Counted from the first letter of the stretch, positions 3,144 through 53,688 are shown. The stretch is DNA of 64,000 nucleotides from Bacilli bacterium (GCA_045615545.1 JAZLFA010000040.1:13667-77666); one strand, 5' to 3'. Numbers and translations are program-made. The notes: a model not told the origin generated them from the letters alone.

Positions 3144-4520
3144 ATGAAACCACTTAATGTAAGAGAAATTAGCTTATTAGTGAATCAAATTAACGAAAAA
3201 ATAAAAGAGAATCATATCTCTAATATCACTGTCGTTAACTCAACTGATTTTATTTTTACCTTCTCTTATTATAGAAAGGAAAAGCTTTATCTATCATTGA
3301 ATCATAATGCGCCTATTATTGGATTTATAACTGTTAAAGATAATGTTCCAACAATATTGGGTAAATATAATGAAATATTTAGAAATGAAATTAAAGATAC
3401 ATTACTTAAAGTAATAGAGACTCCATATAACGATAGAATCATTCGTTTTAAATTATCTAAAACGGATGAATTTTATGCTAAGCATGACAAATACCTTGTC
3501 TTTGAGATGATTCCACATCATCCAAACTTAATTATATTAAATGAAAACGAAGAAATTATATTTGCAACCCACTATACAGATTTAACAAGTGACCGATTAA
3601 TTGTTAAAGGAAGCAAATATGTTGCTCCAACTGCGTCATTAACAAAAAATGCGGAAGTTAGAGATAATCTTGCTATACAAATCCAAGAAACATACGACAA
3701 TTCTTTATTAATAAGAAACAAAGAAAAATTTGACGAATTAGGTGAATACATCAAACATAAAATTAAAGTAGCAGAAAAGAAAAAGTTAGTTTTACTAAAA
3801 GAAATTAAAGAAGCAGAAGAAAAGCTAGTCTATCAAGAGCACGCTAACATGCTTTTAACTTATCAATATAATCCACAAGAATTTAACAACTATCTTTTGG
3901 CCAATCACTTTCCATATGATTCATCAAAATCTAAACAAGACAACATCAATAATCTTTTTAAATTATATAAGAAAGCTAAACTAACAGTTCAAAATGATAA
4001 AGATCAAATAGCGTTAACAGAAAAAGATCTTAACGATTTATATATTGATCTAGATATTTATCAAAGTGGTGATGAAGAAAAAATCGTTCTATTAAAGAAT
4101 AAATATCCAAAATTAATTAAGACAAATAAAGCACAAGTAACCGGAAGATCAATGCCATACTATTTTGATATTGATGGAACAAGGTACGCTTATGGAAGAA
4201 ACGCAGAACAAAATGACTTCCTTACCCATAAACTCGCTAAAAAAGATTATTACTTCTTTCATATTAAGGACTTCGCGGGCGCGCATGTTATCATCATGAA
4301 ATCTAATCCATCTGATTACGAAAAAGAATTAGCGGCTGAACTAGCAATTTATGCTTCAAACAAAGATATTGGAGAAGTAACAATGTCTCAAGTTAAAGAC
4401 ATTAAAAAAGGCCATAAACCAGGCCAAGTAATTTTAGATAAATTTGAAAGCGCAATAATTAAGAAAATTGATGATCGTATAAAACAAGGATATAAAGCTT
4501 CTAATCGTTATTCTTTTTAA
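3144..4520 (+). CDS. NFACT-family protein (RqcH/FbpA-like ribosome quality control factor), short form
   Basis: 458 aa with the NFACT-R signature DFAGAHVII near the C-terminus and a coiled-coil middle region. Shorter than canonical RqcH (about 570 aa). Confidence 0.65.
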   Translation: MKPLNVREISLLVNQINEKIKENHISNITVVNSTDFIFTFSYYRKEKLYLSLNHNAPIIGFITVKDNVPTILGKYNEIFRNEIKDTLLKVIETPYNDRIIRFKLSKTDEFYAKHDKYLVFEMIPHHPNLIILNENEEIIFATHYTDLTSDRLIVKGSKYVAPTASLTKNAEVRDNLAIQIQETYDNSLLIRNKEKFDELGEYIKHKIKVAEKKKLVLLKEIKEAEEKLVYQEHANMLLTYQYNPQEFNNYLLANHFPYDSSKSKQDNINNLFKLYKKAKLTVQNDKDQIALTEKDLNDLYIDLDIYQSGDEEKIVLLKNKYPKLIKTNKAQVTGRSMPYYFDIDGTRYAYGRNAEQNDFLTHKLAKKDYYFFHIKDFAGAHVIIMKSNPSDYEKELAAELAIYASNKDIGEVTMSQVKDIKKGHKPGQVILDKFESAIIKKIDDRIKQGYKASNRYSF

Positions 4521-22610: not shown

Positions 22611-23687
22611 ATGAACATAAATTTAAGCAATGCTGATCAAAAACAAGTTAATAAACTTTTAGAAGTAAAAGAAAATAACATCACTATCGCAAATTTACTT
22701 ATTGATATTTGTTTAATTAGGGATGATGAATTTTATAAACAAATTAAGTTTAATTTTGTAAAAAATAATAGTTTGGCTCTTGCGGTATTAGATACATTAC
22801 AAATTGATATAAACGAACCAACAAATAAAAAACTTGTTGATGAATATTTAGCAAATGCATTTTTGTTTTTAGATATTTCAAAATACGAGCAAAATCCATA
22901 TAATTTAAGCGTAAAACCCCAACAATTTAAAAATAAATCTTATGAATTGTGTTATGAAAAATATCCAGCGTATTCATTTTTTCCATTAGATGATATTAAG
23001 TTATTTGGAAATAAATTTCTGGAATGCTCAAGCATTGGAACGGTTAATAAAGAATATAAATATTTATGTTTAAAAAAGAATAATGAAATTTGGATGTGTA
23101 TTACACCAAATGAAATTAATACGATGGATAATTTTATCTCTGAAGCAAATGGTAATGTATTAACGTACGGGCTTGGTTTAGGTTACTTTTCATTTATGTG
23201 CGCTATAAAAGAAAATGTCAAAACCGTAACAGTAATCGAATCAGATAAAACAATCATTAATTTATTCTTAACCTATATTTATCCATTTATTCCAAACAAA
23301 GAAAAAATAAATATTATTAACAACGATGCTTTTGCTCACTATCAAAATATTAAACAAGGGGAATATGATTATTGTTTTATTGATATATGGCATGACGCTA
23401 ATGACGGGGTTATTTCATTCATTAAATTTAAAAGCATGGAACATAATTATTTATTAACTAGATATTGGATTAACGAATCATTATATGCAATGGTAAGAAG
23501 ATGTTTATTAACAATTATTGAAGAGCAACTTAATGGTGTTAATCCATCAATATATTCAAAAACAAAAAATGACAATGATAGAGTAATAAATTACTTATAT
23601 GAAAAAACAAAAACGATGTCACTTAATTCATATAAAGACATCGTTAATCTATTAACTAATAAAACAATTGATAAAATACTTAAATAA
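22611..23687 (+). CDS. Hypothetical protein with a C-terminal spermidine-synthase-like / class I SAM-methyltransferase-like fold
   Basis: 358 aa. GLGLGY (glycine-rich loop), TVIESD, NNDAF and YDYCFIDIWHD resemble PABS/MTase motifs. The N-terminal 170 aa are unassigned. Confidence 0.4.
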   Translation: MNINLSNADQKQVNKLLEVKENNITIANLLIDICLIRDDEFYKQIKFNFVKNNSLALAVLDTLQIDINEPTNKKLVDEYLANAFLFLDISKYEQNPYNLSVKPQQFKNKSYELCYEKYPAYSFFPLDDIKLFGNKFLECSSIGTVNKEYKYLCLKKNNEIWMCITPNEINTMDNFISEANGNVLTYGLGLGYFSFMCAIKENVKTVTVIESDKTIINLFLTYIYPFIPNKEKINIINNDAFAHYQNIKQGEYDYCFIDIWHDANDGVISFIKFKSMEHNYLLTRYWINESLYAMVRRCLLTIIEEQLNGVNPSIYSKTKNDNDRVINYLYEKTKTMSLNSYKDIVNLLTNKTIDKILK

Positions 23688-24456
23688 CTTTGAAATGTTT
23701 TAAAGCTTTCTTTATTCCTTTACGATCAATTGGAGTGGTAACATAGAAAGCTTTTTCTTTTGCTTCTTCTCTACCATTGCCCATTGCAATACTATATTTA
23801 ACCTCGTTAAACATATCAATATCAGGAATATCGTCACCAATACCCATAGCGTCTTCTTTAGAAAAACCATAGTAATCAAGTACAGCCTTAACACCTAATC
23901 CTTTATGATATTTACTTGGATAAATATCGCACCCCTCATCAAAGAAACGATAAAAATAAACAGGGAATTTATTAAAAGATTTATCGCTGTCTTGATGCGA
24001 GAAAAGAAGCATACTAGTAACTTCTTGGCCTTTATATTCTTCTATACGTGGTTTCTTTTCAACCCAATGTTCAAAGAAACGAATAGTAATATCACTTTCG
24101 GAAATTAAAAAAGCATCATCTGGTGTCATAATCTCTAATACGAGATTCTGCTTTTTTGCTATATCAATGATATCATTTACTATTGGATTAGGAATTACTT
24201 GTTTTAATACATATTTACCATCTGTATAGGCTAAACCACCATTTGTGCACACAAATCCATCATTATCAAGCTTATCTAAAACGCCAATACCTTTTAACGA
24301 ACAATATGGTCTTCCTGTACACAAAACAATCTTCACTCCATTAGAGTGAGCTTCATTTAGTGCTTTAAGACCACTTTTACGGAAGCGCTTGGCTTTGTGA
24401 TCATATAAAGTCCAATCTACATCTACAAATATTATTTTGATATTTGACTTATTCAT
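23680..24456 (-). CDS. Cof-type HAD-IIB family hydrolase
   Basis: 258 aa. Motif I FVDVDWTLYD, TGR, GDDIPDIDMF. Confidence 0.7.
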   Translation of the reverse strand: MNKSNIKIIFVDVDWTLYDHKAKRFRKSGLKALNEAHSNGVKIVLCTGRPYCSLKGIGVLDKLDNDGFVCTNGGLAYTDGKYVLKQVIPNPIVNDIIDIAKKQNLVLEIMTPDDAFLISESDITIRFFEHWVEKKPRIEEYKGQEVTSMLLFSHQDSDKSFNKFPVYFYRFFDEGCDIYPSKYHKGLGVKAVLDYYGFSKEDAMGIGDDIPDIDMFNEVKYSIAMGNGREEAKEKAFYVTTPIDRKGIKKALKHFKVI

Positions 24457-24461
24457 TAATA

Positions 24462-25481
24462 TTAAAGTGGTAAATCCTTCTTAATAAAATATTTGCTTCC
24501 AGCAAAAGCAAAGATAATTCCAACTAAAACCAAAATGCCAAATTCCCAAATCCAGTTATATGAAATAACATCGCTACCAAAGTTTGTTACAGCTTTTGAG
24601 AAAGATGCAATACTATCAGTATCAATCAAAGTATATAAAGTGAAGTAATTAAATACATTCATTGCTTGAACGCCAACACCAACACTAACGAATACTTTGT
24701 TGCCAAATAAACCTAAGATACAACATAAGAAACACAATACACAAACGCCACCACCAACAGCGATTGATTGGTTAGATTTGTTAAAGAATGCACTAGCACC
24801 AAAGCAAACACCAGTTAAAGCAAACATCGATAGGAAACTACCTAAACAATAAAGAGCTGATTTAAGGAAGAAATAATTAAACGGCGTTTCAACTTTTGCA
24901 GTTAAATTAACTATATAGTTAGCAATTGCACCAGTTCCTAAAGCTGCAATTGTAATAATTAAATACATTGCTGCTAAGCTAGCAACAATAAATAAATATT
25001 GAGTTCTAACAACTTTTTTTCTAGCAGTAGGAGTTGATAAAACATAGGCCATTGAACCATCACTAACTTGCGCTGCTAAAAGTTTATTAGCAACGATCAT
25101 GACATAAATCATTGGTAAAAGGACACCAGCAATCTTATATATAAGATCGTTCATAATCGCATTTAAGTCTAATTGTGACATGACCTCAATACGCGAAAGA
25201 GAAAATCCCATTGTTTGTAATAAACCAAGAATTTGTAGCCAGTTCATATTTTCATCTTTTACATATTGTTGAACACTAGCAATATCAATATTTGTAAAGA
25301 TTGCTTTTGTTCCAACCACTAAGTTAACGATGATAAATATAGCAGCGCTTCCAAGAGTGAGCACTAACCATAAAACCCAGTTAGCTTTAAACGACTGTTT
25401 AAATAAAGGCCAAGAGAAATATGATTTATGTTCTGGTTTAGAACTAATTGGTTCCATTACTGCTTCATTGTTCTGACTCAT
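24462..25481 (-). CDS. ABC-2 type transporter permease
   Basis: 339 aa with six predicted TM helices, downstream of two ABC ATPase genes. Confidence 0.6.
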   Translation of the reverse strand: MSQNNEAVMEPISSKPEHKSYFSWPLFKQSFKANWVLWLVLTLGSAAIFIIVNLVVGTKAIFTNIDIASVQQYVKDENMNWLQILGLLQTMGFSLSRIEVMSQLDLNAIMNDLIYKIAGVLLPMIYVMIVANKLLAAQVSDGSMAYVLSTPTARKKVVRTQYLFIVASLAAMYLIITIAALGTGAIANYIVNLTAKVETPFNYFFLKSALYCLGSFLSMFALTGVCFGASAFFNKSNQSIAVGGGVCVLCFLCCILGLFGNKVFVSVGVGVQAMNVFNYFTLYTLIDTDSIASFSKAVTNFGSDVISYNWIWEFGILVLVGIIFAFAGSKYFIKKDLPL

Positions 25482-26433
25482 ATTCGATTCCTCCTACAAC
25501 ATTTTCAATAAAGTATTTTTCAAGTGAATACTGCACCTCTTTAATTAATTTGATGTTATGTTTAGTTAATTCTCTAAACATGCCATCAGTTTTTTCTATC
25601 GGTACCCTAATTAAGTAACCGTAAAATTCAGGATATTTTTCTAAGACAATAATTTGACTTGTGTCGGCAGTGTCATAACTCTTTTTATCATTAAATGTAA
25701 TGACATATTCTTTGAATGGTCGATTATGAATTTCATCCATATCGACAATGTCGATAATTTTTCCTTCTTTAATGAAAGCAACATAATCACATGTTTCTTC
25801 AAGTTCATCAAACATATGATTAGACATAATTATTGTTGTACCTTTTTCCTTTTCTTCTTTAATAATGTTAATAAATGATTCACGCATTAAAGGATCTAGT
25901 CCGGTAGTTGGCTCATCAAGCAAAACAATCTTTGGATGATGCATAAATGCCGCCACTAGAGCGGTTTTTTGTTTCATACCCTTACTCATACGTTTTAAGT
26001 TAGCGGTTGGATCTAATTGCAAAGCATTAATTATTTCTTCCGCTCTACTCATATCTGTAACATTAAGAAGTTCAGCTTGGCTTTTTAAAAACGCACTTCC
26101 ACTTTCAACAGCAGGGAAAGCAATTTCTCCAGGGAGATAGCCAATAAATGGTTTAATTTTTTCACTATCTTTCCAAGCATCCATACCTTCAACAGTAACA
26201 CTGCCTTCTTGAGGTTTTAAAAATCCCATGATATGACGAAGGGTAGTTGTTTTACCAGCACCATTAGTGCCACAATAACCTAAGGTTTTTCCACGAGGAA
26301 CAATGAAGCTAACATCAAATATACCTCTACCTTTACCATAGTCTTTTGTTAAATGAGAGACTTTGATTGCGATATCTTCATCTTTAAAATCTAATAAGCT
26401 TTTCGCGTGCTCATATTTTTTAAGCTCTTCCAT
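25465..26433 (-). CDS. ABC transporter ATP-binding protein
   Basis: 322 aa. Walker A GTNGAGKTT, signature MSKGMKQK, Walker B VLLDEPTTGLD. Confidence 0.85.
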   Translation of the reverse strand: MEELKKYEHAKSLLDFKDEDIAIKVSHLTKDYGKGRGIFDVSFIVPRGKTLGYCGTNGAGKTTTLRHIMGFLKPQEGSVTVEGMDAWKDSEKIKPFIGYLPGEIAFPAVESGSAFLKSQAELLNVTDMSRAEEIINALQLDPTANLKRMSKGMKQKTALVAAFMHHPKIVLLDEPTTGLDPLMRESFINIIKEEKEKGTTIIMSNHMFDELEETCDYVAFIKEGKIIDIVDMDEIHNRPFKEYVITFNDKKSYDTADTSQIIVLEKYPEFYGYLIRVPIEKTDGMFRELTKHNIKLIKEVQYSLEKYFIENVVGGIEYESEQ

Positions 26434-26444
26434 CTTAGCCCCTC

Positions 26445-27404
26445 CTATTTTTTATTACCAACAACACCAGAAAGACCGCCAAATTCTTTCTCTTCTTTAT
26501 AGAAAGACATGAAATAGTCTTGTAATGTATATGGTTTTTCACCAAATGATCTCACCTTAAATCTGAGAACGGAATCGATGAAATCACTATATTGATTTAC
26601 TTTAAATCTTACAAAAACAATATTACGTTTTGGATTTGTATTAACTACTTCAAATGGACATTTTGATAAATATCTTTCCATATTGTCATAATCTTTAAAT
26701 TCCAAAACATATGTTTTGGTAGAAATATCTTTTACATCTTCAGCTCTAAAAGTTGAAACGTGTTTACCATCTTTAATAATAGAAATATTGTCACAAGTCG
26801 CATCAACTTCAGAGAAGATGTGGCTGGAAAGGAGAATGGTTTTTCCTCTTTTCTTTTCATCCACAATGAATTTGATGAATATTTGTTGCATAACAGGATC
26901 TAGTCCACTGGTAGGTTCATCTAATATTAAAACGTCAGGATCATTCATAAATGCTGCAACAACAGCGAGCTTACGTTTTTCACCTAACGACATACTTTTT
27001 ACCATTGGAGATGGATCAAATTTAAATAAGCGAAGAAGATAATCTAATCTTTCTTGATTAACTTCGCCACGCATATCCTGCATCATCTTAATAAATCCCC
27101 AGCCATTTAATCCCATTGGAATATTTGGTTCACCAGGGAGGTAACCAACTTTTGCAAGAATCTTGTCAGTATTTCCAAAAGTATCAATTCCAAAGATTTT
27201 TGTGAAACCAGTTGTTGGTTTAGAAAAACCCATAATATGCCTTATGGTCGTAGATTTACCCGCTCCATTAGGACCTAAATAGCCATAACATTCACCTTTA
27301 TGGACTTGAATTGAAACATCGAAAACACCACGGCCATAACCATAGTCTTTAGTCAAGTGACTAACTTCAATAACAACAGGTTCTTTTGAAAAATCCTTGC
27401 TCAT
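26445..27404 (-). CDS. ABC transporter ATP-binding protein (second ATPase gene)
   Basis: 319 aa. Walker A GPNGAGKST, signature LSLGEKRK, Walker B LILDEPTSGLD. Confidence 0.85.
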   Translation of the reverse strand: MSKDFSKEPVVIEVSHLTKDYGYGRGVFDVSIQVHKGECYGYLGPNGAGKSTTIRHIMGFSKPTTGFTKIFGIDTFGNTDKILAKVGYLPGEPNIPMGLNGWGFIKMMQDMRGEVNQERLDYLLRLFKFDPSPMVKSMSLGEKRKLAVVAAFMNDPDVLILDEPTSGLDPVMQQIFIKFIVDEKKRGKTILLSSHIFSEVDATCDNISIIKDGKHVSTFRAEDVKDISTKTYVLEFKDYDNMERYLSKCPFEVVNTNPKRNIVFVRFKVNQYSDFIDSVLRFKVRSFGEKPYTLQDYFMSFYKEEKEFGGLSGVVGNKK

Positions 27405-27405
27405 A

Positions 27406-28302
27406 TTATTCCTTTGTTAATTCAATAGGCACTAAGTGTGCAGCTCTAAATGTATAACTATATTGAGAGAAAAGTGGAGCAAAATTTTCATTCATTTCTT
27501 TTACTTCGTTAATATTATGTTTTTCATCTACAAGCGGGGCAGTACCAACTCTACTTTGAAAATCTTGATTTCCATCCGCACCAGGAAGATCACCACAGCC
27601 AGCAGGAAGTTCATCTTTCTTTTGCAAGTTATGAATAATTAAGTTATCGAATCTACCAGTTGAGTCATATGTTGGAATGATAAATAAACCATACCAACAT
27701 AGTTGGAATAAGAAATCATTAAAACTAACAGGCATTGTGATTGAAATTTTATTACCGCTTAAAAATGCCACCAATATCGATTCAATAATAATTTCACTTA
27801 ATTCAGAGCTTATCTCTGGAGGAAGAATCATCGAAAAAGCAGCAGTACCAATTCTCATTCGGTTACCTTTTCCGTTAGTTACTTTTTCATCAAGACTATA
27901 GTAAAGATGTAAATCTTCTTCACTAAAGAAGACGGAAAGAAGCTCTTTAATTTCATCAAAAGTTACTACATCAGAATTTAAAAGAGCTAAAATAGCGTTC
28001 GCAAGTAAATCAATCTTAGACATGGATGTTCCGCCAGTAAGAAGCGCAAAATCAAGCACTCTTTTTGTATTATATAAAGAAGGCACGCTTGAAGAGCTTG
28101 AAGGTGACTGACTACCGCTAGTAAGAGCAGGTTCAGCAGGAATCTCGTAGATTTCTTGTGTTAAATTTAAAGAAACACCAATTGTAGATTCAGGAGTGCT
28201 ACCAAGCTTAAAGGAATATTTTCCATAAATGCTAGATGAACTACATGAAGTCAAAGCCATAAACGGAATGGCTAATAGAAGTAACATTTTTTTCAATTTC
28301 AT
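27406..28302 (-). CDS. Putative lipoprotein, unknown function
   Basis: 298 aa. Signal peptide with lipobox (MALTSC) followed by a Ser-rich linker. No family recognised. Confidence 0.5.
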   Translation of the reverse strand: MKLKKMLLLLAIPFMALTSCSSSSIYGKYSFKLGSTPESTIGVSLNLTQEIYEIPAEPALTSGSQSPSSSSSVPSLYNTKRVLDFALLTGGTSMSKIDLLANAILALLNSDVVTFDEIKELLSVFFSEEDLHLYYSLDEKVTNGKGNRMRIGTAAFSMILPPEISSELSEIIIESILVAFLSGNKISITMPVSFNDFLFQLCWYGLFIIPTYDSTGRFDNLIIHNLQKKDELPAGCGDLPGADGNQDFQSRVGTAPLVDEKHNINEVKEMNENFAPLFSQYSYTFRAAHLVPIELTKE

Positions 28303-28334
28303 AAATAAATACCTCCGGTAACTTTATAAATTAA

Positions 28335-28736
28335 CTAGATTTTTTTAACAAATGTAACAACATTTTGATTATTAATACGTTCATACTTTATCTCATCAGT
28401 AAGTTTCTTACACATCAAAATGCCAAGACCACCAATATCGCGATCTTCAGCATGAAGAGTGATATCAGGATCTTCTTTTGCGAGTGGATCAAAAGCAAAA
28501 CCAGAATCAATAATTTGATAGGTAAGCGAATTATCAACTAACTCAATAGAAATGTCACATTTGCCTTCTTTGTTTGGATAAGCAAATTTTGCAACATTAG
28601 TAAAAAGTTCTTCCACTACTATATTCATAGACATTAACACCTTCATCTCAACACCAAAAGATTCCAAAGTTTCTTCATTAAAAGATAAAACGTTTGGAAA
28701 TTCATCTAATGATGCAATAAAAGATTGTTTTGCCAT
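28335..28736 (-). CDS. Anti-sigma regulatory factor-type Ser/Thr protein kinase (RsbW/SpoIIAB-like HATPase_c)
   Basis: 133 aa. N-box EELFTNVAKFAY, G1 DSGFAFDP, G2 GGLGI. Confidence 0.7.
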   Translation of the reverse strand: MAKQSFIASLDEFPNVLSFNEETLESFGVEMKVLMSMNIVVEELFTNVAKFAYPNKEGKCDISIELVDNSLTYQIIDSGFAFDPLAKEDPDITLHAEDRDIGGLGILMCKKLTDEIKYERINNQNVVTFVKKI

Positions 28737-28814
28737 AAAACCACCATTATGAATAATCCTAGTAAAAATTGATATTCTTACTAGGCAAAATTCAAAATAT
28801 AATTATCAACAATA

Positions 28815-29111
28815 TTATTCAATATTGAGGATATAAGAGAAGCCAGTCATTTCAAAGATTTCTTTGATAGAATCACTGACATGAATAAGGTTCATTGTAC
28901 CTTGTTTGCTCATTACTTTTTGAGCGCCTAAAATAACACGTAAACCAGCACTTGAAATATATTCAAGATTTGCGAAATCAAATGTTAAATGATTAATTCC
29001 AGGAAGTGATTGATTTAAAACAGTTTCAAGTTCTGGAGAAGTGACTGTATCAAGTCTACCAGTAATAGCAATTGTTAAACTTGTGTCATTTAATTTCTTT
29101 TCAATAGTCAT
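28815..29111 (-). CDS. STAS-domain anti-sigma-factor antagonist (RsbV/SpoIIAA-like)
   Basis: 98 aa from MTIEKK, which has GAGGAAA 7 nt upstream. ITGRLDTVTSPELE carries the conserved phosphorylatable Ser/Thr region. The ORF-track ORF extends to 29138. Confidence 0.7.
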   Translation of the reverse strand: MTIEKKLNDTSLTIAITGRLDTVTSPELETVLNQSLPGINHLTFDFANLEYISSAGLRVILGAQKVMSKQGTMNLIHVSDSIKEIFEMTGFSYILNIE

Positions 29112-29231
29112 AATTATTTCCTCTTTTTTTCTTTTCAATATTATAAATTGAAATTTATTATTTTTCTATTACTTTTTATCATATCAACATATTGAATCAT
29201 TATTTATTGATCAATCGTAAAAATTACAAAT

Positions 29232-29258
29232 AAAAAGCGTAACAAAGTTACGCATTTT
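29232..29258. terminator. Hairpin AAAAAGCGTAAC-aaa-GTTACGCATTTT (bidirectional terminator)
   Basis: Perfect 7-bp GC-containing stem flanked by A and T runs, immediately 3' of the minus-strand tRNA-Ser(GCT). Confidence 0.5.
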
Positions 29259-29265
29259 AATTAAA

Positions 29266-29356
29266 TGGCGGAGCAAGAGAGACTCGAACCCTCGCACCGG
29301 AAACCCGATCTACGTCCTTAGCAGGGACGCCCCTTCACCAACTTGGGTATTGCTCC
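29266..29356 (-). tRNA. tRNA-Ser (anticodon GCT)
   Basis: The reverse complement folds into a class II tRNA with a long variable arm, anticodon loop CTGCTAA, T-loop GGTTCGAGTCTC and encoded CCA. Confidence 0.85.
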
Positions 29357-30857: not shown

Positions 30858-32630
30858 CTATTTATATTTCTCCGCTAAAGCGGATAAACGATCCATTTTC
30901 TTTTTATCAACAGGTAATATCATATCATTACTTGCTGTAATATTTTCACTAGAAATTACAGAAATTCCACTTTGTATTAATAATTCAATTGCTTGCCAAC
31001 CATCTAAATCGGTAGCGATAATCGGTTTATTGTATTTAAGTAATTGCTCAATTAAAACGTGAACGGATAGTCTAGTTCTACCACTTTGTTTGATTTCACC
31101 AATCATTGAGCTACCAACAACAAAGAAATCGAAATTTAAATAAAATGATGAATCTAAAAGCAAATCACGATTTTTAAGTGATAAGGCCAAAGAATATCCT
31201 TCGTCTCTTAAATCTTTATATATATTTGTTAACACGTCATATCCATCGACATTATCATTAATCTCTTCTTCATCAAAAATTAATACGAGATCACATTCTT
31301 TAATTCTTACTATAGTAGATAATAATTCTTTAATGTGTTTGATATCGAGTAATGACACAGCAAAGAATAATTTATATTTCTTGTTTTTAACAGAATTAAC
31401 AAATTCAGTAATTGCCATTTTAGAGACAACAGAAAATAGTTCTCTATTCTTATCTACTTTCGCGGCATAATTGGCCATTTCTAAGAAGTCTCCCAAAGGA
31501 GATTCGTAAGCTTTGATGTATTCAAAATAGCCCAAAATTGAAGCAGTGTTTATATCCACAATAGGACGATATAAATATCTTAATGAATTTGGTTTTAATA
31601 GATATTCAACATGTTCGTTAATTCTATTAAGGTCGATGAGTGGTCTTGAACTACTTCTTTTAAACAAATAAATTGTTTGATTGTTTTGTTGGGCATAAAA
31701 ACAAGCTTGCTCACTTGCTTCAATGATACCCTCAAAATCTTGGAAATATTGATTGTTTCCAACAATACCAATCGTAAAGTTAATGGAATCTTGGAAACCG
31801 TTAATAACGATTGCTTTACGCATTGACTTTTCAATAGAATTTGCAAGCAATATTGCGCGTTCCTTAGAGTCAATATTTAAATCAAATAATAAAATTTGAT
31901 TGTCTTTGTTATCAATAATTTGACGGCAATGTTTTTGATCTAATGCGAAAGGATAAACATTATTTTTAAGAGAAAGCACCATAAAACGTTCAATCTTTTC
32001 ATTTGTTGTAACAAGTGGCTTTAAGTAATAAAAACGTATTGCATATGTAAATCCTTTAATGGATTTTCTTTTGTTAATCATATCGCTATAAGCAACAGGA
32101 TCAACTAAACCATAACTTTTACTAATATGTTTTGGCTTTTTGCTAACAAAATTGTTAGGGGTTATATATCTGAAAAGATGACTTTCAACATGAATTAAAC
32201 CGGCATTGGAATCGAATTTTAATAAACGGAGAATTGAAAAATAATTATTTTTACCATGATTTGTTATCATATCCGCTTCGATATATTCATCAACATCTTT
32301 ATGATCAATATACATTGAATAAATCCAGTTTTTTACTTTTTCAACATCGCCTTCATGGAAAGAATTGAAAAATTTTGTAAGTGACATCACTCTTTTAACT
32401 TTCAAATTAGTGCGGTCAAAATAGACAACACGGTTTTCTTTTGGATTGATATTTAAAACGCGAACAACATTGGTTTCACGAATAATTTGTTCCGCGATTC
32501 TTGTATCCGTAACAAGGGAATAAATGAAAGAAGCAATTAATCCGATAATAAAAACAATGACCACCAAACAAATGATGAATAAAGTTAAGAAGGGAATATT
32601 ACTAAAGTTCCACAATTCCATAATACACAA
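30858..32630 (-). CDS. Membrane-anchored protein with a catalytically degenerate EAL domain (and possibly a degenerate GGDEF-like middle domain)
   Basis: 590 aa. N-terminal TM (IPFLTLFIICLVVIVFIIGLIASFIY). The C-terminal 250 aa follow the EAL layout: YRPIVDINTASILGYFEYIKAYESPLG against (Y)QPIVDL..G.I.GYEALLRW, LIFDEEEI against LEITE, LRDEGYSLALSLKN against L..LG..IALDDFG, LNFDFFVV against LKIDRSFV, and KPIIATDLDGWQAIELLIQSG against L.VVAEGVET.EQ...L...G. Catalytic residues are replaced. Confidence 0.5.
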   Translation of the reverse strand: MCIMELWNFSNIPFLTLFIICLVVIVFIIGLIASFIYSLVTDTRIAEQIIRETNVVRVLNINPKENRVVYFDRTNLKVKRVMSLTKFFNSFHEGDVEKVKNWIYSMYIDHKDVDEYIEADMITNHGKNNYFSILRLLKFDSNAGLIHVESHLFRYITPNNFVSKKPKHISKSYGLVDPVAYSDMINKRKSIKGFTYAIRFYYLKPLVTTNEKIERFMVLSLKNNVYPFALDQKHCRQIIDNKDNQILLFDLNIDSKERAILLANSIEKSMRKAIVINGFQDSINFTIGIVGNNQYFQDFEGIIEASEQACFYAQQNNQTIYLFKRSSSRPLIDLNRINEHVEYLLKPNSLRYLYRPIVDINTASILGYFEYIKAYESPLGDFLEMANYAAKVDKNRELFSVVSKMAITEFVNSVKNKKYKLFFAVSLLDIKHIKELLSTIVRIKECDLVLIFDEEEINDNVDGYDVLTNIYKDLRDEGYSLALSLKNRDLLLDSSFYLNFDFFVVGSSMIGEIKQSGRTRLSVHVLIEQLLKYNKPIIATDLDGWQAIELLIQSGISVISSENITASNDMILPVDKKKMDRLSALAEKYK

Positions 32631-43642: not shown

Positions 43643-44917
43643 TTAATTTTTAAGACTTGTTATTGGCACTACATATACGCCATCGTTTCTTCTATAAGCA
43701 GCGTTAGTTAAACCACAAATGACGCATAGCTGCCTAGCTGGTTTGCCACCTTTTTTTTCAATATTTTTATTTAAAGCAATAAGTTTTAAAGCGGCATCAT
43801 CAATTTGATTGGCGCCTAACTTAATTTCAAATGCACACCAAGAACCATCTTCAAGTTCAATCACAGAATCAATTTCGTTATTTTCGTAATCTTGGTAATG
43901 AAATAACTTTCCTCCAAAAGACTCAGCATAAGTTAATAAATCTCTCTGAACAAGTGATTCAAACATAAATCCTAATAAGTCTAAATTATTCAACAACTTT
44001 TCATGCGATAAATTTAATAAAGCACATGGTAAAGAAGGATCAACAAAATGCCTTTTTTCGCTTTGCTTAACTCGAATAGAAGACCTAATGTTTGAAGAAA
44101 AAGGAGGTATATTTTCTAGTATATATAAATTATTAAACAAATTTAGATAATCAGTAATTGTATCAACATCAATATCATGTGAATCTTTTTCTATAATGTC
44201 TCTTTTCAAAGTTGTATTTGTCACAGTTGTACATTCGTTTCTTGCTAGAGATTTTAGAAGTAACTCAATTTTGTGTTTATCTCTTTTTATATCATCAACT
44301 TTAAAAATATCTTCATTAATTACAGATTTAATGTATTCTTTACTAACTAACATACCTCGTTTAACATCTAATTCTAGTGTTGCGGGCCACCCACCGACGA
44401 CAATACAATCGATAATATCATTTATATCTACTTCATTAAGATAAACATCTTTTGCTTTTCCATAACATATATCAAGCAAAGAAATTTCACCTTTTGATTT
44501 ACCGCTCTCATATAAAGACATTGGCCTCATTTTTAAACGAGCTATTCTGCCGGTTCCAGTATGAATGTATTTATTCTTATTTATTGTCGCAGAACCAGTT
44601 AATATAAATTGCCCTTTTCTTGGATCTGAATCAACCTTCCCTCTAACGGCATCCCAAATTAAAGGTGCTTCTTGCCATTCATCTATTAATCTAGGAAAAT
44701 TACCATCCAGTATAAGGTATGGATTCATTAAAGCTAATTTTTTATTGTTAAAATTTCCTTTTGGATCAGATAACATAACTTCGCTATTAGAATTATTTTT
44801 GCTTGTCCATGTTTTTCCACACCATTTAGGACCTTCAATTAAAATAGAAGAAAATGTTGTAAGATAGAAACTTATCTTTTCATCTATTATTCTTTGCTTG
44901 TAATTTACTAATTTCAT
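43643..44917 (-). CDS. AAA-family ATPase (AAA_14) with C-terminal DUF4143 domain (putative PD-(D/E)xK nuclease fold); paralog 1
   Basis: 424 aa. Walker A GPKWCGKT, Walker B-like LILDGNF.LIDEWQ, and C-terminal EIDSVIELEDGSWCAFEIKLG (D...ExK pattern). Confidence 0.7.
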   Translation of the reverse strand: MKLVNYKQRIIDEKISFYLTTFSSILIEGPKWCGKTWTSKNNSNSEVMLSDPKGNFNNKKLALMNPYLILDGNFPRLIDEWQEAPLIWDAVRGKVDSDPRKGQFILTGSATINKNKYIHTGTGRIARLKMRPMSLYESGKSKGEISLLDICYGKAKDVYLNEVDINDIIDCIVVGGWPATLELDVKRGMLVSKEYIKSVINEDIFKVDDIKRDKHKIELLLKSLARNECTTVTNTTLKRDIIEKDSHDIDVDTITDYLNLFNNLYILENIPPFSSNIRSSIRVKQSEKRHFVDPSLPCALLNLSHEKLLNNLDLLGFMFESLVQRDLLTYAESFGGKLFHYQDYENNEIDSVIELEDGSWCAFEIKLGANQIDDAALKLIALNKNIEKKGGKPARQLCVICGLTNAAYRRNDGVYVVPITSLKN

Positions 44918-45017: not shown

Positions 45018-45110
45018 TGTAATGGCAATGTACTGGTAACCTAAAAGTAGACACACAAAATTTATTCAGTAGACACACGAATGTTAAAATGGAAACAAGG
45101 AGGATTAAAT

Positions 45111-45449
45111 ATGTGGAGAACATATCAAGAAGAAGTAGACATTGGAAACAAAGTTTTTAATCACGTAATGACAAAAACGGAAGCAATGGAACAATTTGAT
45201 TTAACAAATAACGAGCTTACAACTTGTATTAAAAAATACATGAAAGAAAACAATATTCCAATCATACCTGAAGTGCTTAATGCTATAAGCATTGAGTTTC
45301 CAAATTACTATGATTTAAGTAAAGAGGAATTGATCAAAGAAATCATGAAAAAAGACATTGAGGTTGAACGTGCAAAAAAAGGATACACAGTGAGAGGGGG
45401 TGGAAAGACAAAGGAGTTCATTTCTATAAAAGATGCGAATATCAAATAG
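45111..45449 (+). CDS. IS3-family transposase OrfA (HTH)
   Basis: Start at MWRTYQ with AAGGAGG 7 nt upstream. Small helical DNA-binding protein immediately 5' of orfB. Confidence 0.5.
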   Translation: MWRTYQEEVDIGNKVFNHVMTKTEAMEQFDLTNNELTTCIKKYMKENNIPIIPEVLNAISIEFPNYYDLSKEELIKEIMKKDIEVERAKKGYTVRGGGKTKEFISIKDANIK

Positions 45450-45451
45450 TA

Positions 45452-46051
45452 ATGCAGCTTTCAAATAAATGGCACGTAAGAGATTTATGCGATGCGATGT
45501 CTATATCAAGATCAGGCTTCTATAAATGGAGAAAAAGAATCAACAATCCATGCAAGACTGTTAAAAAACGAATGGATGATATAATTCTCTTTGAGAAATA
45601 TCACAAGAAATATCCAAGCCACGGTTATAGATGGCTTAACGCAAAAATAAGATTAGACCTAGGTTTAGTTATGTCTGATCAATATGCACATAGATGTTGT
45701 AAATTCGCTGGAATAAAATCTCAATCAAAACATTACCAATATAAAGCGCCAGGAGAAAATAGAAGAGTCTTTGAAAACATGGTTATGTCATCCATAAAAA
45801 TGGATGGCCCATTACAAGTTGTGGTCTCAGATATGACAGCCTTCTGGGCAAATAAAACATATTGGGAATTAACTTTATATATGGATTTGTGGAATGATGA
45901 AATCATAGGCTATGGTTTATCAAGCCGAAGAGGTGATAGAAACACTTATTTCGAAGGATTAAAACAAGTTTGTGAAAAAATAAAAGGAATAGAAGGTCTT
46001 GAGTTGATTTTGCACACAGATTGGATAAGTATTGCAACAGGAATTTTTTAA
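45452..46051 (+). pseudogene. IS3-family transposase OrfB, 3'-truncated (no DDE glutamate region)
   Basis: SRSGFYKWRKR, YPSHGYRWLNAKI, VVSDMTAF (first D) and LYMDLWNDEIIGY (second D) match IS150-like OrfB. The ORF stops at 199 aa against about 280 expected. Confidence 0.65.
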
Positions 46052-46426: not shown

Positions 46427-47713
46427 TTAATTTTTTAAACAAGCAAGAGGGACTTCATAAACTCCATCTTCTCTCTTTAAAGCAGCTACTCCTTTAGTTA
46501 TAACCATTAAAAAAGCAGGTTTTCCAGTTTTTTCTTTATCAATATCGTTGGAAATTTTAATTAATTTTTTTGCTGCCTCATCAATATCTTCTTGATCAGT
46601 AAGTTTGACTTCGATTAATGCCCAACTGCCATCTCTAAATTGAATAACAGCATCTGCTTCGCGATCCATTTGATCTTTATAATGATAAACATTTGCTCCA
46701 AAAGTATCACAGTATATTCTTAAATCACGAATTGCTAATGATTCAAACAAAAATCCAAAAGTATTCATATCACTAAATAACCCTTTTGGACCAATCCCAA
46801 GTGAAGCGGCCGCAATAGAAGGATCAACAAAATGTCTAGTATTTTTTGATCTAATTGAAACTTTGCTTCTTAGATTAGGATTCCAAGCCTCCAATTCCTC
46901 TACAACATATAGTCTTTTAAGAGCAAGTAAATACTTCTCAAATGTTTTTACATCAAAAGAATTATCATTAGATGCAACATCATTTACAATGACACTATCT
47001 GCGCACTGAGATCCAATATTTCTTGAATATGAACGCATTATTTTTTTTGCTTTATTTACATCTTTTCTTATTTTAATATCTTTTAGTGAAAATAAATCCT
47101 CATTTACAACAGCATCATAAAAATCTATAACTTGTTGTAATGCAACATCTTTTTCTTGATTAATTGATAATGGCCATCCGCCACGACAAATATAATATGT
47201 GTAGTCTTCAATTGTTTTATTAGATAAACATGGTTCAAATATGCCTTCTTTTAAATTAAGTAACGAAACTTTTCCGTTACTATCTCCGCTTTCAAACAAA
47301 GACATAGGTCTCATCATTTTTCTCACAATTCTTCCTGCACCAGTATGCCTTTCGCCATTATTCTTTGAAATGGTTTTATCGGTAATACTTCCTGTTAATA
47401 TAAATTGTCCAAAAGATCCGCTCTTATCAACTTGGTCTTTTATAGAATTCCAAATAAAAGATATTTCCTGCCATTCGTCTATCATAAGTGGTTTTTCACC
47501 TTGTTGCAAAAAAATAGTTGGCGAAGCTTTTGCCAAATCAATATATTGTTGTTTTGTTTCTTCTATTGTTAAATCGATAATAGTTTTTGCTTGTCTAGCT
47601 GAAGTTGTTGATTTGCCACACCATTTAGGGCCAACCACCAATACAGCTCCTTTTGATTTAAGCGAAAATCTTAACGTTTCATCAAACAATCTTGGTATAT
47701 AATTTTTTTCCAT
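46427..47713 (-). CDS. AAA-family ATPase (AAA_14) with C-terminal DUF4143 domain; paralog 2
   Basis: 428 aa. Walker A GPKWCGKS, MIDEWQ, and C-terminal EADAVIQFRDGSWALIEVKLT. About 40-45% identical to paralog 1 by eye. Confidence 0.7.
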   Translation of the reverse strand: MEKNYIPRLFDETLRFSLKSKGAVLVVGPKWCGKSTTSARQAKTIIDLTIEETKQQYIDLAKASPTIFLQQGEKPLMIDEWQEISFIWNSIKDQVDKSGSFGQFILTGSITDKTISKNNGERHTGAGRIVRKMMRPMSLFESGDSNGKVSLLNLKEGIFEPCLSNKTIEDYTYYICRGGWPLSINQEKDVALQQVIDFYDAVVNEDLFSLKDIKIRKDVNKAKKIMRSYSRNIGSQCADSVIVNDVASNDNSFDVKTFEKYLLALKRLYVVEELEAWNPNLRSKVSIRSKNTRHFVDPSIAAASLGIGPKGLFSDMNTFGFLFESLAIRDLRIYCDTFGANVYHYKDQMDREADAVIQFRDGSWALIEVKLTDQEDIDEAAKKLIKISNDIDKEKTGKPAFLMVITKGVAALKREDGVYEVPLACLKN

Positions 47714-50517: not shown

Positions 50518-51390
50518 TTATTTTTCTCCTTTATGCAACACAAGTTTACGTAACTGGTAAACTCCGTAAATAACATGCGACGCATATTTCTTCACAGATG
50601 GATAGGCTTTATACATCACATAACTATTTTCATGATAAGCATTGAACATGGAAATATCATTACCACTATCGCCAACAACATAAACATCTTTTGGATCGGC
50701 TTTTAAATAGTCGCAATAATATTTTACACCATAACCTTTATTACAGTTAACAGGAGTTAATTCATTAACTATACTGCTCCAAGAAGATTCAACATCGGGA
50801 TAATTTTCACGGATGCGTTTATTAATTTCTTTAGCGATATCAGAATTTTTCTTACGAATACCAAAAAATAACATTATTTTATATACTCTGCCATCAGTAA
50901 ATTGGGACATGAATCTTTCATTATCAATAACCCAATCTTCTTTACGTTTGAACATAAAGAAACCATACAAAGCGTAAAAAGCAAGCATGATTGCAGAACT
51001 ACGATTTCGATAAATTAAGAAAGGTTGTTCTTTTGCATTCATTAAAAAGGCTTTTGGCTTATATTTTATTCTTAATTCTTCAATATCACTTTTTAGCTTT
51101 GGATTCATCGCAACATCACGAATTGGTTTTCCATCGCAAGTAATATAAGCAGAAGAATAGGAAATACAATCAAAAGGTCTTTGTATTTCTTTTTCAAGCT
51201 TTTTACAGTATTCTGGCGGACGAGATGTAACAAGTACTAAACGATTACCGGCATCAATCCATTCACGAAGGAATTTACAATTTCTTCTACTGATGTATCG
51301 AAATAAAGCAAACGATTTTAATAATGTTCCATCAAGGTCAGTACAAAGTATCTTTTGGCTCATAATGTATACATTATACACGATAAACAA
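50518..51390 (-). CDS. HAD-superfamily (Cof-like) hydrolase
   Basis: Motif I LCTDLDGTLL, VTSR, VVGDSGNDISMF. The start may instead be the internal MSQK at 51363. Confidence 0.6.
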   Translation of the reverse strand: MFIVYNVYIMSQKILCTDLDGTLLKSFALFRYISRRNCKFLREWIDAGNRLVLVTSRPPEYCKKLEKEIQRPFDCISYSSAYITCDGKPIRDVAMNPKLKSDIEELRIKYKPKAFLMNAKEQPFLIYRNRSSAIMLAFYALYGFFMFKRKEDWVIDNERFMSQFTDGRVYKIMLFFGIRKKNSDIAKEINKRIRENYPDVESSWSSIVNELTPVNCNKGYGVKYYCDYLKADPKDVYVVGDSGNDISMFNAYHENSYVMYKAYPSVKKYASHVIYGVYQLRKLVLHKGEK

Positions 51391-51399
51391 AAATTGAAA

Positions 51400-51430
51400 A
51401 GAAAAAAAGGAGGAACAATGTCCTCCTTAA
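51400..51430 (-). terminator. Rho-independent terminator of hpf: AAGGAGGA-cattgt-TCCTCCTT followed by a T-run on the minus strand
   Basis: 8-bp stem followed by TTTTTTTCTTTTC on the minus strand, directly 3' of hpf. Confidence 0.5.
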
Positions 51431-51446
51431 ACTATTTTGAGACTAA

Positions 51447-51998
51447 TTATTGTTTAATTGGATTTTCAGCTTGAATAACACCATATCCACCATCATTACG
51501 AATATAAACAACAGAGATACGATCATCTTCTTCATCTAAATAAACAAAGAAGTTATGTCCTAAAGCTTCCATTCTTGTAATAGCATCTTCGATGCTCATT
51601 GGATCGAGGTAATAAGATTTTGTTCTAACAATAACATCTTCCTCACTTCCCTCTTCTCCTTCAACTTGATCGAAGTTAATGTCATGAGACAATCCCAAAC
51701 GAGCATTGCTACGATCCATTCTAGTCTTTAGCTTACGCATTTGACCTTCGAGCTTATCAACCGCTAAATCAATAGCAGCGTATAAGTCTGCATTTTCGAC
51801 TTCAGCACGAAGTTTGATTTGAGGTAGGAAAATAGTAATTTCAACTTTTTGAACGCCAACATGTGCACTACAAACAGCGCGGCATTCAACATCTTCGTTG
51901 ATCAGGAAATACTTTTCCATTCTCGCTGTCTTTTTTTCAATGGCAGCAGAAATCCCTTCGGTGATTTCGATGTTTTTTCCGATAATTTGGTACTTCAT
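51447..51998 (-). CDS. hpf: Ribosome hibernation promoting factor (long HPF)
   Basis: Start at MKYQIIGKNIEITEGI, which has an AAGGAGA RBS. S30AE N-domain plus a C-terminal dimerisation domain. Confidence 0.85.
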   Translation of the reverse strand: MKYQIIGKNIEITEGISAAIEKKTARMEKYFLINEDVECRAVCSAHVGVQKVEITIFLPQIKLRAEVENADLYAAIDLAVDKLEGQMRKLKTRMDRSNARLGLSHDINFDQVEGEEGSEEDVIVRTKSYYLDPMSIEDAITRMEALGHNFFVYLDEEDDRISVVYIRNDGGYGVIQAENPIKQ

Positions 51999-52075
51999 AA
52001 TATATTTTCTCCTTTCCAAAATTTATTACGGAGAGGTCTACATTTTTATTATAAAAGATAGAATAGATAATTTCA

Positions 52076-53245
52076 TTAATTATCTTTAGTTAATAGTTCT
52101 TTTATGATATCAACCTTATCTAATTTCTCCCAAGGAAGAGATAAATCTGGTCTTCCAAAATGACCATAGGTTGCCAAATCTTCATACTTAAAAGATGGAT
52201 TTGTTAATTTGAATGCCTTACAAATCATTCCTGGTCTAGCATCAAATACATGGCGAATTATTTTTAATATTTTTTCATCATCATATTTACCAGTACCAAA
52301 TGTTTTAATACCAATTGAGATAGGTTCATTAACTCCGATAGCATATGCTAATTGAACTTCCATCCTATCAGAAACTCCAGCAGCAACTAAGTTCTTGGCA
52401 ATGTATCTAGCGTAGTAAGCGGCTGTTCTATCAACTTTGGTTGGATCTTTCCCAGAAAAAGCACCACCACCATGGCTAGCTGTACCGCCATATGTATCAA
52501 CAATTAATTTTCTTCCAGTTAAACCAGTATCACCTTTTGGCCCACCAATTACAAATGAACCAGTTGGATTAATTAAATATTTAAAATCAGCATTTAAGTT
52601 AAATGATTTTGCTACCTTAACCATAATCTCATCATGAATATATTTTTTAAATAGATCCATATCAATATCAGGGTCATGAGAAACAGACATTAAAATTGTG
52701 TCGATTTTTATATTATTAGTATTTGAATAATCAATAGTAACTTGTGACTTCATATCAGGCCTTGAATGAAGAAATTTTCCTTCATGTCTAAGTCTACTTG
52801 CTTCACGAACTAACTTATGGGCAATCGAAATAGGAAGAGGCATATAACCACTTGTTTCATTCGTCGCGTAACCAAACATCATTCCTTGGTCTCCCGCTCC
52901 TACTTTTTCTGCCTCATTTTGACTTACACCTAATGAGATATCTGGGCTTTGCCCTTTGATTAAATTAATAATCTTAACGTTATGATAATCAGTGCCTAAT
53001 TCCAAAGAATCATACCCAATCTTTTTTAATACATTTTTTGCAATTTCCTCACAATTTGGTAGAGATTTGCAGGTAATTTCGCCTCCAATAATGATTGTGT
53101 TATCACTGGCAAAAGTCTCACAAGCCACTCTTGCTTTTGGATCAATTGCTAAGCATGCATCAAGTATCGCATCACTAATTTGATCGCATACTTTATCTGG
53201 ATGTCCTTCACTAACAGATTCACTAGTAAATAAAATCTTTTCCAT
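52076..53245 (-). CDS. metK: S-adenosylmethionine synthetase
   Basis: Start at MEKILFTSESVSEGHPDK with a GGAG RBS. GHPDK, GAGDQG and DTYGG motifs. Confidence 0.9.
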   Translation of the reverse strand: MEKILFTSESVSEGHPDKVCDQISDAILDACLAIDPKARVACETFASDNTIIIGGEITCKSLPNCEEIAKNVLKKIGYDSLELGTDYHNVKIINLIKGQSPDISLGVSQNEAEKVGAGDQGMMFGYATNETSGYMPLPISIAHKLVREASRLRHEGKFLHSRPDMKSQVTIDYSNTNNIKIDTILMSVSHDPDIDMDLFKKYIHDEIMVKVAKSFNLNADFKYLINPTGSFVIGGPKGDTGLTGRKLIVDTYGGTASHGGGAFSGKDPTKVDRTAAYYARYIAKNLVAAGVSDRMEVQLAYAIGVNEPISIGIKTFGTGKYDDEKILKIIRHVFDARPGMICKAFKLTNPSFKYEDLATYGHFGRPDLSLPWEKLDKVDIIKELLTKDN

Positions 53246-53261
53246 AACGTATCTCCATGAA

Positions 53262-53412
53262 AATAAAAGCTTCCCCATAGACGGGGAAACTTTTGAAATT
53301 TGTTTCCTTACTCATCGTTCGAAGCTATGGGACTTCGCTAGAGAGGGCACTTACTCTTTTCGAGAGTTGCCACTGCATTTTTTCATCTCAATTATGCAGT
53401 TCTTGATAAGCA
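53262..53412 (-). promoter_or_regulatory. S-box (SAM-I-like) riboswitch leader with intrinsic terminator, upstream of metK
   Basis: On the minus strand the leader reads CTTATCAAGA...ACTGCA-(GATGAAA)-TGCAGT GGCAAC ... CGAAG-n-CTTCG AACGATGAG, then terminator TTCCCCGTCTATGGGGAA + TTTTATTTT. The P1 halves CTTATC/GATGAG, a four-helix layout and the GCAAC junction resemble SAM-I, but the canonical GGAGGGA/GGCCC P2 is not present. Confidence 0.45.
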
Positions 53413-53433
53413 ATTTAATTATAAGATTATTAT

Positions 53434-53688
53434 CTATTTTTTCAATAGATGTTTTTTAATTCCTTGCGCCATTTGATCTGGGCAAGATGTTGGACGTGGA
53501 CCACAATGAATTCCTTCAAGTTTTTCCACAACTGTTTCAAGTTTAAGCCCAACTATTAGTGAACATATACCCTGAAGATTACCATTACAACCGCCAATAA
53601 CATAAGCAGAAGTAACGATTCCTTCATCGTTATATTCAATATGCATTTCCTTAGAACAAACGTTCTGAGGTTGAAACACTAATTCCAT
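53434..53688 (-). CDS. TSCPD-domain protein (TIGR03905-like)
   Basis: 84 aa with the conserved CGPRPTSCPDQ motif plus GGCNGN. Confidence 0.6.
   Translation of the reverse strand: MELVFQPQNVCSKEMHIEYNDEGIVTSAYVIGGCNGNLQGICSLIVGLKLETVVEKLEGIHCGPRPTSCPDQMAQGIKKHLLKK

Follow-up and report, generated by a model that had tools for sequence, protein, structure and literature searches.

Seven genes on the minus strand of a 64,000-nucleotide (nt) stretch of DNA from a Bacilli bacterium (GCA_045615545.1 JAZLFA010000040.1:13667-77666), which as a whole is called the window here, are the subject of this work. They occupy the region 23680-29138 head-to-tail, and encode, in the direction of transcription, a STAS-domain protein and a Ser-kinase that form a partner-switching pair, a lipoprotein, two ATPases of the ATP-binding cassette (ABC) type, an ABC-2-like permease and a HAD phosphatase. 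A sequence-only reading of the window had described them as one seven-gene operon, in which the pair, having no sigma factor beside it, might act on a non-sigma target and possibly be coupled to the exporter and lipoprotein, and the HAD phosphatase could supply the missing dephosphorylating activity. The comparison with related loci points instead to two separable modules lying side by side, the STAS/kinase pair and a conserved exporter. The genes are as follows.

28815-29111, minus strand: STAS protein of 98 amino acids (aa), single domain, anti-sigma-antagonist type (PF01740, 46 bits; TIGR00377, 66.9 bits, cutoff 53.45)
28335-28736, minus strand: Ser-kinase of 133 aa, GHKL type, HATPase_c_2 family (PF13581, 75.8 bits)
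27406-28302, minus strand: lipoprotein of 298 aa with lipobox ALTSC, first gene of the conserved transporter unit
26445-27404, minus strand: ABC ATPase 1 of 319 aa, DrrA/ABCA-like (ABC_tran; Walker A, Walker B and H-loop intact)
25465-26433, minus strand: ABC ATPase 2 of 322 aa (ABC_tran), paralogous to ATPase 1 (about 40% identity)
24462-25481, minus strand: ABC-2-like permease of 339 aa that has six hydrophobic segments, a loop of 55 residues separating transmembrane segment (TM) 1 from TM2
23680-24456, minus strand: Cof-type HAD-IIB phosphatase (TIGR00099, 144.5 bits, cutoff 137)

The intergenic gaps, from the STAS gene through the HAD gene, are 78, 32, 1, 11, -17 and 5 nt, and both the row of closely spaced genes and their identities by Pfam and NCBIfam agree with the sequence-only reading. 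Its outer end at 29138 does not hold: the TTG at that position is probably not a start, and the STAS gene most likely begins at the ATG at 29111, which carries an AGAGGA Shine-Dalgarno sequence and gives the 98-aa form of the protein-collection record, in agreement with all homologues.

For the comparison of related loci, the lipoprotein and the permease served as handles. A subset of 11 lipoprotein sequences found four GTDB loci (L012-L015, from Bacilli metagenome-assembled genomes, MAGs), while an alignment of 30 lipoprotein sequences was too diverse for pattern design and a scan of genome contigs with three close lipoproteins found nothing; together with 27 JGI metagenome loci, one locus around a distant lipoprotein (L048) and the loci L001 and L009, these were compared with the window. 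The order lipoprotein-ATPase 1-ATPase 2-permease occurs in every locus with enough sequence (more than 20, all from MAGs or metagenomes of uncultured Bacilli), and is held even around the L048 lipoprotein homologue, of only about 27% identity. Across the loci the ATPases are 64-88% identical, the permease 59-70% and the lipoprotein 23-47%. Only three loci, the window, L001 and L009, were found to carry the STAS and kinase genes, which are missing in 12 distinct loci that extend 0.9-7.3 kb upstream of the lipoprotein gene. The HAD gene lies directly behind the permease gene in the window only, and no other locus has one at that place; in L009 the gene after the permease is read from the opposite strand. 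General co-occurrence is limited to the four transporter genes, and therefore the conserved cassette has four genes, not seven, the pair being shared by three loci and the HAD gene behind the permease confined to one. This ancient and strictly conserved unit seems to be among the core traits of low-GC Bacilli of the gut and rumen that are uncultured and related to the Mollicutes.

The signals that bound the transcription units were read from the sequence around and between the genes.

29266-29356: tRNA-Ser(GCU), upstream of the STAS gene, beside proS
29237-29253, minus strand: terminator-like hairpin after tRNA-Ser(GCU), a 7-bp stem with 4 GC pairs, then TTTTTATTTG
29140-29168, minus strand: promoter-like site of the STAS gene, TAGAAA-17-TATAAT, by sequence reading
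28758-28785, minus strand: 12-bp hairpin that lacks a following T-run, within the STAS-kinase spacer of 78 nt (spacer folding energy -19.4 kcal/mol, z -3.97)
28303-28334, minus strand: kinase-lipoprotein spacer of 32 nt, hairpin-free, with TATAAA 6 nt upstream of a GGAGG Shine-Dalgarno sequence and TTGTTA before it at 17 nt

The hairpin at 29237-29253 closes the upstream proS/tRNA unit. Behind proS and tRNA-Ser the STAS-headed unit therefore has its own start, with a promoter-like site whose -10 element, TTTATAATAT, is also present in L001 and L009. In these two loci a 9-bp stem with a T-run, an intrinsic terminator of canonical form, directly follows the kinase stop (L001 10479-10503, z -3.4; L009 3457-3480, z -3.1), the post-kinase spacer is about 100 nt in length as against 32 nt in the window, and a promoter-like site lies 5' of the lipoprotein gene; in L009 this site includes the extended -10 TGCTATAAT, 6 nt before the Shine-Dalgarno sequence of that gene. 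A -10-like hexamer stands at the same position in the window (TATAAA, within 28303-28334), in L009 (within 3490-3534) and in L012 (TATAAT, about 3340-3367), in all three separated by only 6-7 nt from the Shine-Dalgarno sequence that follows, and therefore the transporter operon would have a very short leader. Accordingly, the STAS-kinase genes and the transporter genes are predicted to be separate transcription units in L001 and L009, which counts, computationally and in relatives, against the claim of a single seven-gene transcript. Because both L001 and L009 keep the terminator, and L009 is the closer of the two to the window, the simplest history has two adjacent units in the common ancestor; no hairpin was seen at the post-kinase position of the window. 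The 12-bp hairpin between the STAS and kinase genes is specific to the window, and might act as an incomplete terminator or stabilise the RNA, and in this way fix the ratio of STAS protein to kinase.

The pair itself reads as a genuine STAS/Ser-kinase module with intact motifs. In the alignment of the STAS protein to SpoIIAA (1auz, E 7.5e-10), which spans nearly the full length, Ser54, within LEYISSAGLR, falls on Ser58, the residue that is phosphorylated in SpoIIAA. All the boxes of the kinase are present and conserved in its family, namely the N box (E43/N47), G1 (D77-S-G79) and G2 (G102-G-L-G105), and its sole significant solved relative is RsbW (6m36, E 7e-5), with no SpoIIAB chain matched in the PDB search. 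The window kinase is without the 18-residue N-terminal extension that was called in the sister-locus kinases. Between the window and its L001 and L009 counterparts the STAS protein is 82% identical and the ATPases 83-88%, while the kinase is only 52-58% identical. Neither protein reaches the cutoff of a known equivalog: the kinase scores 37.9 against 145 bits (NF003144) and 31.3 against 155 bits (TIGR01924) for RsbW, and 26.1 against 135 bits for SpoIIAB (TIGR01925), and the STAS protein 58.2 against 114.75 bits for SpoIIAA (TIGR02886) and a weak 17.8 against 90 bits for MlaB (NF033618, E 0.0033). Because its scores are so far under these cutoffs, the kinase is best classed, by sequence, as a functional-looking STAS kinase that is not an orthologue of RsbW, SpoIIAB or another known anti-sigma factor. 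A relic spoIIAA-spoIIAB operon that had lost sigF was considered and rejected, as both proteins are far under the equivalog cutoffs and the kinase has no SpoIIAB match in the PDB; a recent horizontal gain of the pair is likewise unsupported, its GC content being 0.31 as against 0.32-0.34 in its neighbours.

No sigma factor and no PP2C phosphatase lie at the locus, as had been claimed, nor elsewhere in the 64-kb window, to which this absence applies. Sigma-70 domains were missing among its open reading frames, all of which were read, with the unrecognised ones scanned against Pfam. When the window was translated in six frames and searched with a hidden Markov model (HMM) built from four PP2C domains, even an E limit of 10 brought no match, and STAS and kinase HMMs matched only the two known genes in it. 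Additionally, the flanks of L001 and L009 hold no PP2C gene.

The database search for the kinase returned 631 homologues, most of which measure 133-141 aa and share 42-52% identity with it; those few that bear a name belong to Lachnospiraceae, Ruminococcus, Wujia and similar MAGs. Eight distinct genomic contexts were read. In all eight a STAS gene of about 98 aa adjoins the kinase gene or is one gene away; the partner STAS proteins, from other Firmicutes-type metagenome or MAG loci, are 47-62% identical to that of the window. Four of the eight clusters include a PP2C (SpoIIE) gene, of the dCache(+HAMP)-SpoIIE type in two, the cNMP-binding-SpoIIE type in one and the plain SpoIIE type in one, whereas neither a sigma gene nor an ABC-2 transporter is adjacent in any of them (0/8 each). 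The window pair thus appears, by sequence, to belong to a large and coherent sigma-less partner-switching subfamily of the Firmicutes, which combines a STAS protein of about 98 aa with a kinase of about 135 aa, and is often paired with a PP2C carrying dCache/HAMP or cNMP sensor domains, with no sigma gene nearby in any sampled context. A limited full-text literature search found no experimental study of this subfamily.

Other genes in the sampled contexts may be recorded here. Genes for second-messenger proteins often neighbour the homologous pairs in the contexts sampled: a PAS-GGDEF-EAL gene lies near the pair in L002 (5499-10943) and an RR-GGDEF-HD-GYP gene in L005 (7700-13083), and in L043 (4013-9839) the order is cNMP-PP2C, CHASE2-cyclase, AP_endonuc_2 (PF01261), kinase, STAS and GGDEF. 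In L044 (1975-5358) an HD_4 hydrolase, a STAS+APH fusion and an MscS gene are found near the pair.

The transporter unit is headed by a lipoprotein that has no real Pfam or NCBIfam match. A word-index search returned one match with the single sequence and two with a profile, while an exhaustive HMM search returned 175 cluster representatives (clusters at 50% identity), 58 of them at E <= 1e-10; the family therefore comprises at least 175 clusters, with members only from metagenomes and MAGs. All sampled members possess a lipobox and the common motifs C..YG.Y.F.LG, GYY, PVS..D...QL.WYG, R.GT.P, MN and FR..H., and none of 81 family members has a Pfam match. An AlphaFold2 model made from the 81-sequence alignment reached a pLDDT of 85.6. 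The lipoprotein would contain a small beta-barrel, and its family has no close solved fold.

Both ATPases are above the PF00005 cutoff, and their best NCBIfam model is drrA at 161 bits, under the subfamily cutoff of 312. ATPase 1 is 70-85% identical across related loci; the nearest solved relatives of ATPase 2 are Rv1218c, ABCA1/3/4/7, NosF and a 6xjh chain labelled only 'ABC transporter ATP-binding protein'. The permease scores 23 bits for PF12679 (ABC2_membrane_2), below the gathering score of 27.2, and has no sequence match in the PDB. The closest known systems are the type V/ABC-2 exporters, such as Rv1217c-Rv1218c, the ABCA lipid exporters, NosFY and PmtABCD: the ATPases are closest to these by sequence, the permease would resemble theirs in its six TM segments and in the extracytoplasmic loop that follows TM1, and two distinct ATPase genes are found as in PmtABCD. 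Unlike them, the unit has one permease gene per two ATPase genes and an obligatory upstream lipoprotein. The two ATPases would form a heterodimeric pair, and the four genes would together encode a type V (ABCA/ABC-2-like) exporter with a surface lipoprotein partner, the substrate of which is probably hydrophobic.

Based on these findings, we propose that the locus holds two separable modules side by side, a sigma-less STAS/kinase pair and the conserved exporter, with the PP2C and the target of the pair encoded elsewhere, a reading to which we give a probability of about 0.55. By analogy, the pair would plausibly be an ordinary member of the sigma-less partner-switching class with a non-sigma output, as the sequence-only reading had also supposed; such an output is plausible because the closest relatives of the kinase, in all eight contexts, never adjoin a sigma gene, and it has precedents in systems whose output is the STAS protein, namely SypA, HmpV, RbaV and BtrV (PMC8256260) and All4160 (bioRxiv 10.64898/2026.04.08.717354). 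The corresponding systems, SypE/SypA of Vibrio fischeri, HmpU/V/W of Nostoc, RbaV/W of Rhodobacter, BtrU/V/W of Bordetella and HenR/All4160/Alr3423 of Anabaena, resemble the window pair in combining a single-domain phospho-serine STAS protein with an RsbW-like GHKL kinase and in having no sigma gene in the locus, but the window pair has no PP2C nearby, falls in its own Firmicutes subfamily and comes from uncultured low-GC Bacilli.

In the proposed mechanism, the kinase would phosphorylate Ser54 and thereby switch the STAS protein between partners. The unphosphorylated STAS protein would be the output that binds a non-sigma target, in the manner of SypA, HmpV, RbaV and All4160, and the PP2C that resets it, like the target, would be encoded elsewhere in the genome or would have been lost. 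The pair may have come to sit between proS/tRNA-Ser and the transporter unit in the lineage of the window and its two sisters; a loss of about 70 nt in the window lineage would then have removed the post-kinase terminator, such that read-through from the STAS promoter now probably supplements the transporter's own promoter. The HAD protein would be an unrelated neighbour of the sugar-phosphatase type. A functional link between the two modules is possible but unsupported: the transporter unit stands alone in 12 loci, and no ABC-2 transporter adjoins the pair in the eight contexts of its relatives, which speaks against the coupling to exporter and lipoprotein proposed by the sequence-only reading.

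Several points weigh against the proposal. The order STAS-kinase-lipoprotein-ABC is kept in three loci (ProRS 79% identical to that of the window in L001 and 91% in L009) despite changed flanks, with a Fic gene upstream in L009 and different genes downstream, and some selection for adjacency may have acted. Co-transcription of the window genes, at least partial, is almost certain. The STAS protein is as conserved as the ATPases while the kinase is not, which would fit a STAS protein constrained by a partner that is itself conserved, for example the ATPases. Moreover, the step that makes the STAS protein the output is drawn from analogy, with no PP2C or target located, and the 64-kb scope of the search leaves room for a sigma factor elsewhere in the genome.

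This last point bears on the alternative that stands up best, although it is still unlikely, namely that the pair is a classical anti-sigma system, whose kinase sequesters a SigB- or SigF-like sigma factor encoded elsewhere until the STAS protein releases it. The domain pair is canonically that of RsbV/RsbW, RsbW is also the solved structure that the kinase matches best, and only 64 kb of the genome were inspected; RsbV/RsbW/SigB and SpoIIAA/SpoIIAB/SigF of Bacillus share both domain families and the position of the phospho-acceptor with the pair. Unlike these Bacillus systems, the window is without genes for a sigma factor and for SpoIIE, RsbU or RsbP, and its kinase is presumably 10-25 residues shorter than RsbW and SpoIIAB. 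An anti-sigma kinase of the canonical kind normally shares an operon with its sigma factor, whereas a sigma gene is adjacent in none of the eight contexts of the closest family members. The scores of the kinase, 38 against 145 bits for RsbW and 26 against 135 bits for SpoIIAB, and an E of 7e-5 for its PDB match to RsbW, likewise disfavour orthology. Uncultured Bacilli orders related to the source do retain variable remnants of sporulation, including spoIIAB (PMC10868615), a patchy distribution that lends the alternative some support.

A lesser chance is given to the STAS protein being a phospho-regulated subunit of the exporter, which in its unphosphorylated form docks on one or both ABC ATPases, as MlaB does on MlaF, and stabilises or activates them, and which the kinase turns off via Ser54. 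MlaB, itself a STAS protein, binds the ABC ATPase MlaF via a surface centred on Thr52, the equivalent of the SpoIIAA phospho-site; the T52E variant weakens the binding, and phosphoregulation has been put forward there as a possibility, although no kinase is known for it (PMC7367683). As in MlaFEDB, a small STAS gene lies beside ABC transporter genes in the window; the pair is immediately upstream of the transporter in all three pair-bearing loci, the intervening terminator is gone in the window, the conservation of the STAS protein (82%) equals that of the ATPases, and the weak MlaB match (E 0.0033) could be taken in the same sense. However, the transporter occurs without a STAS/kinase neighbour in at least 12 related lineages, terminators part the modules in L001 and L009, and an ABC-2 transporter is adjacent to none of the eight kinase-homologue contexts. 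The STAS protein is also of full SpoIIAA length and type, not of the truncated MlaB type (17.8 against 90 bits), and the transporter, unlike that of MlaB-MlaF, is ABC-2-like, without MlaE or MCE (MlaD) and mostly without a STAS protein in relatives. The three loci are close relatives, and their common adjacency may be inherited. Docking adaptations in the ATPases of STAS-bearing loci were looked for and none was seen in the protein lengths, which are the same as in the other loci. If this alternative were true, the locus would provide a simple genetic system for the phosphoregulation of ABC transporters via STAS domains; that it holds the first natural case of a dedicated Ser-kinase gating an ABC transporter through a kinase-controlled, MlaB-like STAS subunit is improbable.

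Slighter still is the prospect that the pair feeds cyclic-di-GMP signalling and targets a neighbouring 590-aa protein with a degenerate EAL domain, as in HsbA/HsbD. This membrane protein is encoded at 30858-32630 on the minus strand, and its gene adjoins proS in L001 too; the EAL match is weak (35 bits), EAL itself reads EYI and the DDFG and Lys motifs are lacking by eye, from which the protein is probably catalytically dead. In favour of such a target, the order EAL-proS-tRNA-STAS is retained in L001, homologous pairs in L002-4, L005, L043 and L046 have GGDEF, EAL or HD-GYP genes as neighbours, and in L043 a GGDEF gene comes directly after the STAS gene. Nevertheless, proS, the tRNA gene and a terminator separate the EAL gene from the STAS gene, and the weak domain without catalytic motifs argues in the same direction. 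Clostridia carry GGDEF and EAL genes in great number, and the proximity in homologous loci may be chance.

Finally, that the Cof-type HAD protein dephosphorylates the STAS protein, as the sequence-only reading had suggested from its place 5 nt behind the permease gene and the lack of a PP2C in the window, is highly improbable and was rejected, as the gene is not conserved with the transporter unit (it is missing behind the permease in L009 and all other loci), passes the Cof cutoff and resembles sugar-, riboflavin- and pyridoxal-phosphate phosphatases, and the phosphatase of the module's relatives, wherever they have one, is a PP2C (SpoIIE domain).

Some features of the surroundings complete the description. 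The HAD gene and a convergent gene for a 358-aa methyltransferase-like protein (22611-23687, plus strand), which has a weak spermidine-synthase match, overlap by 8 nt at their 3' ends (23680-23687), and no terminator was seen between them. In L009 only, a Fic-domain gene (1387-2427) is inserted between proS and the STAS gene. A block of PduL, MetK, HPF and a second Cof-type HAD gene lies at 50518-54290 on the minus strand of the window, about 25 kb from the cassette, and the same block or a part of it is found a few kb downstream of the permease gene in L014 (7744-14112) and L015 (8216-12396); by gene order, this shift shows a rearrangement between lineages. Two paralogous ATPase genes of the AAA/DUF4143 type, at 43643-44917 and 46427-47713 on the minus strand, flank IS3-type transposase fragments (45081-46051, plus strand).

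In conclusion, if the reading of two separable modules is true, the locus would be mostly ordinary, one more orphan partner-switching pair that lies next to a transporter. Two things would nonetheless be worth recording, (i) an unstudied STAS-kinase subfamily of the Firmicutes and (ii) a conserved exporter of uncultured Bacilli whose lead lipoprotein is from a family without a Pfam model.

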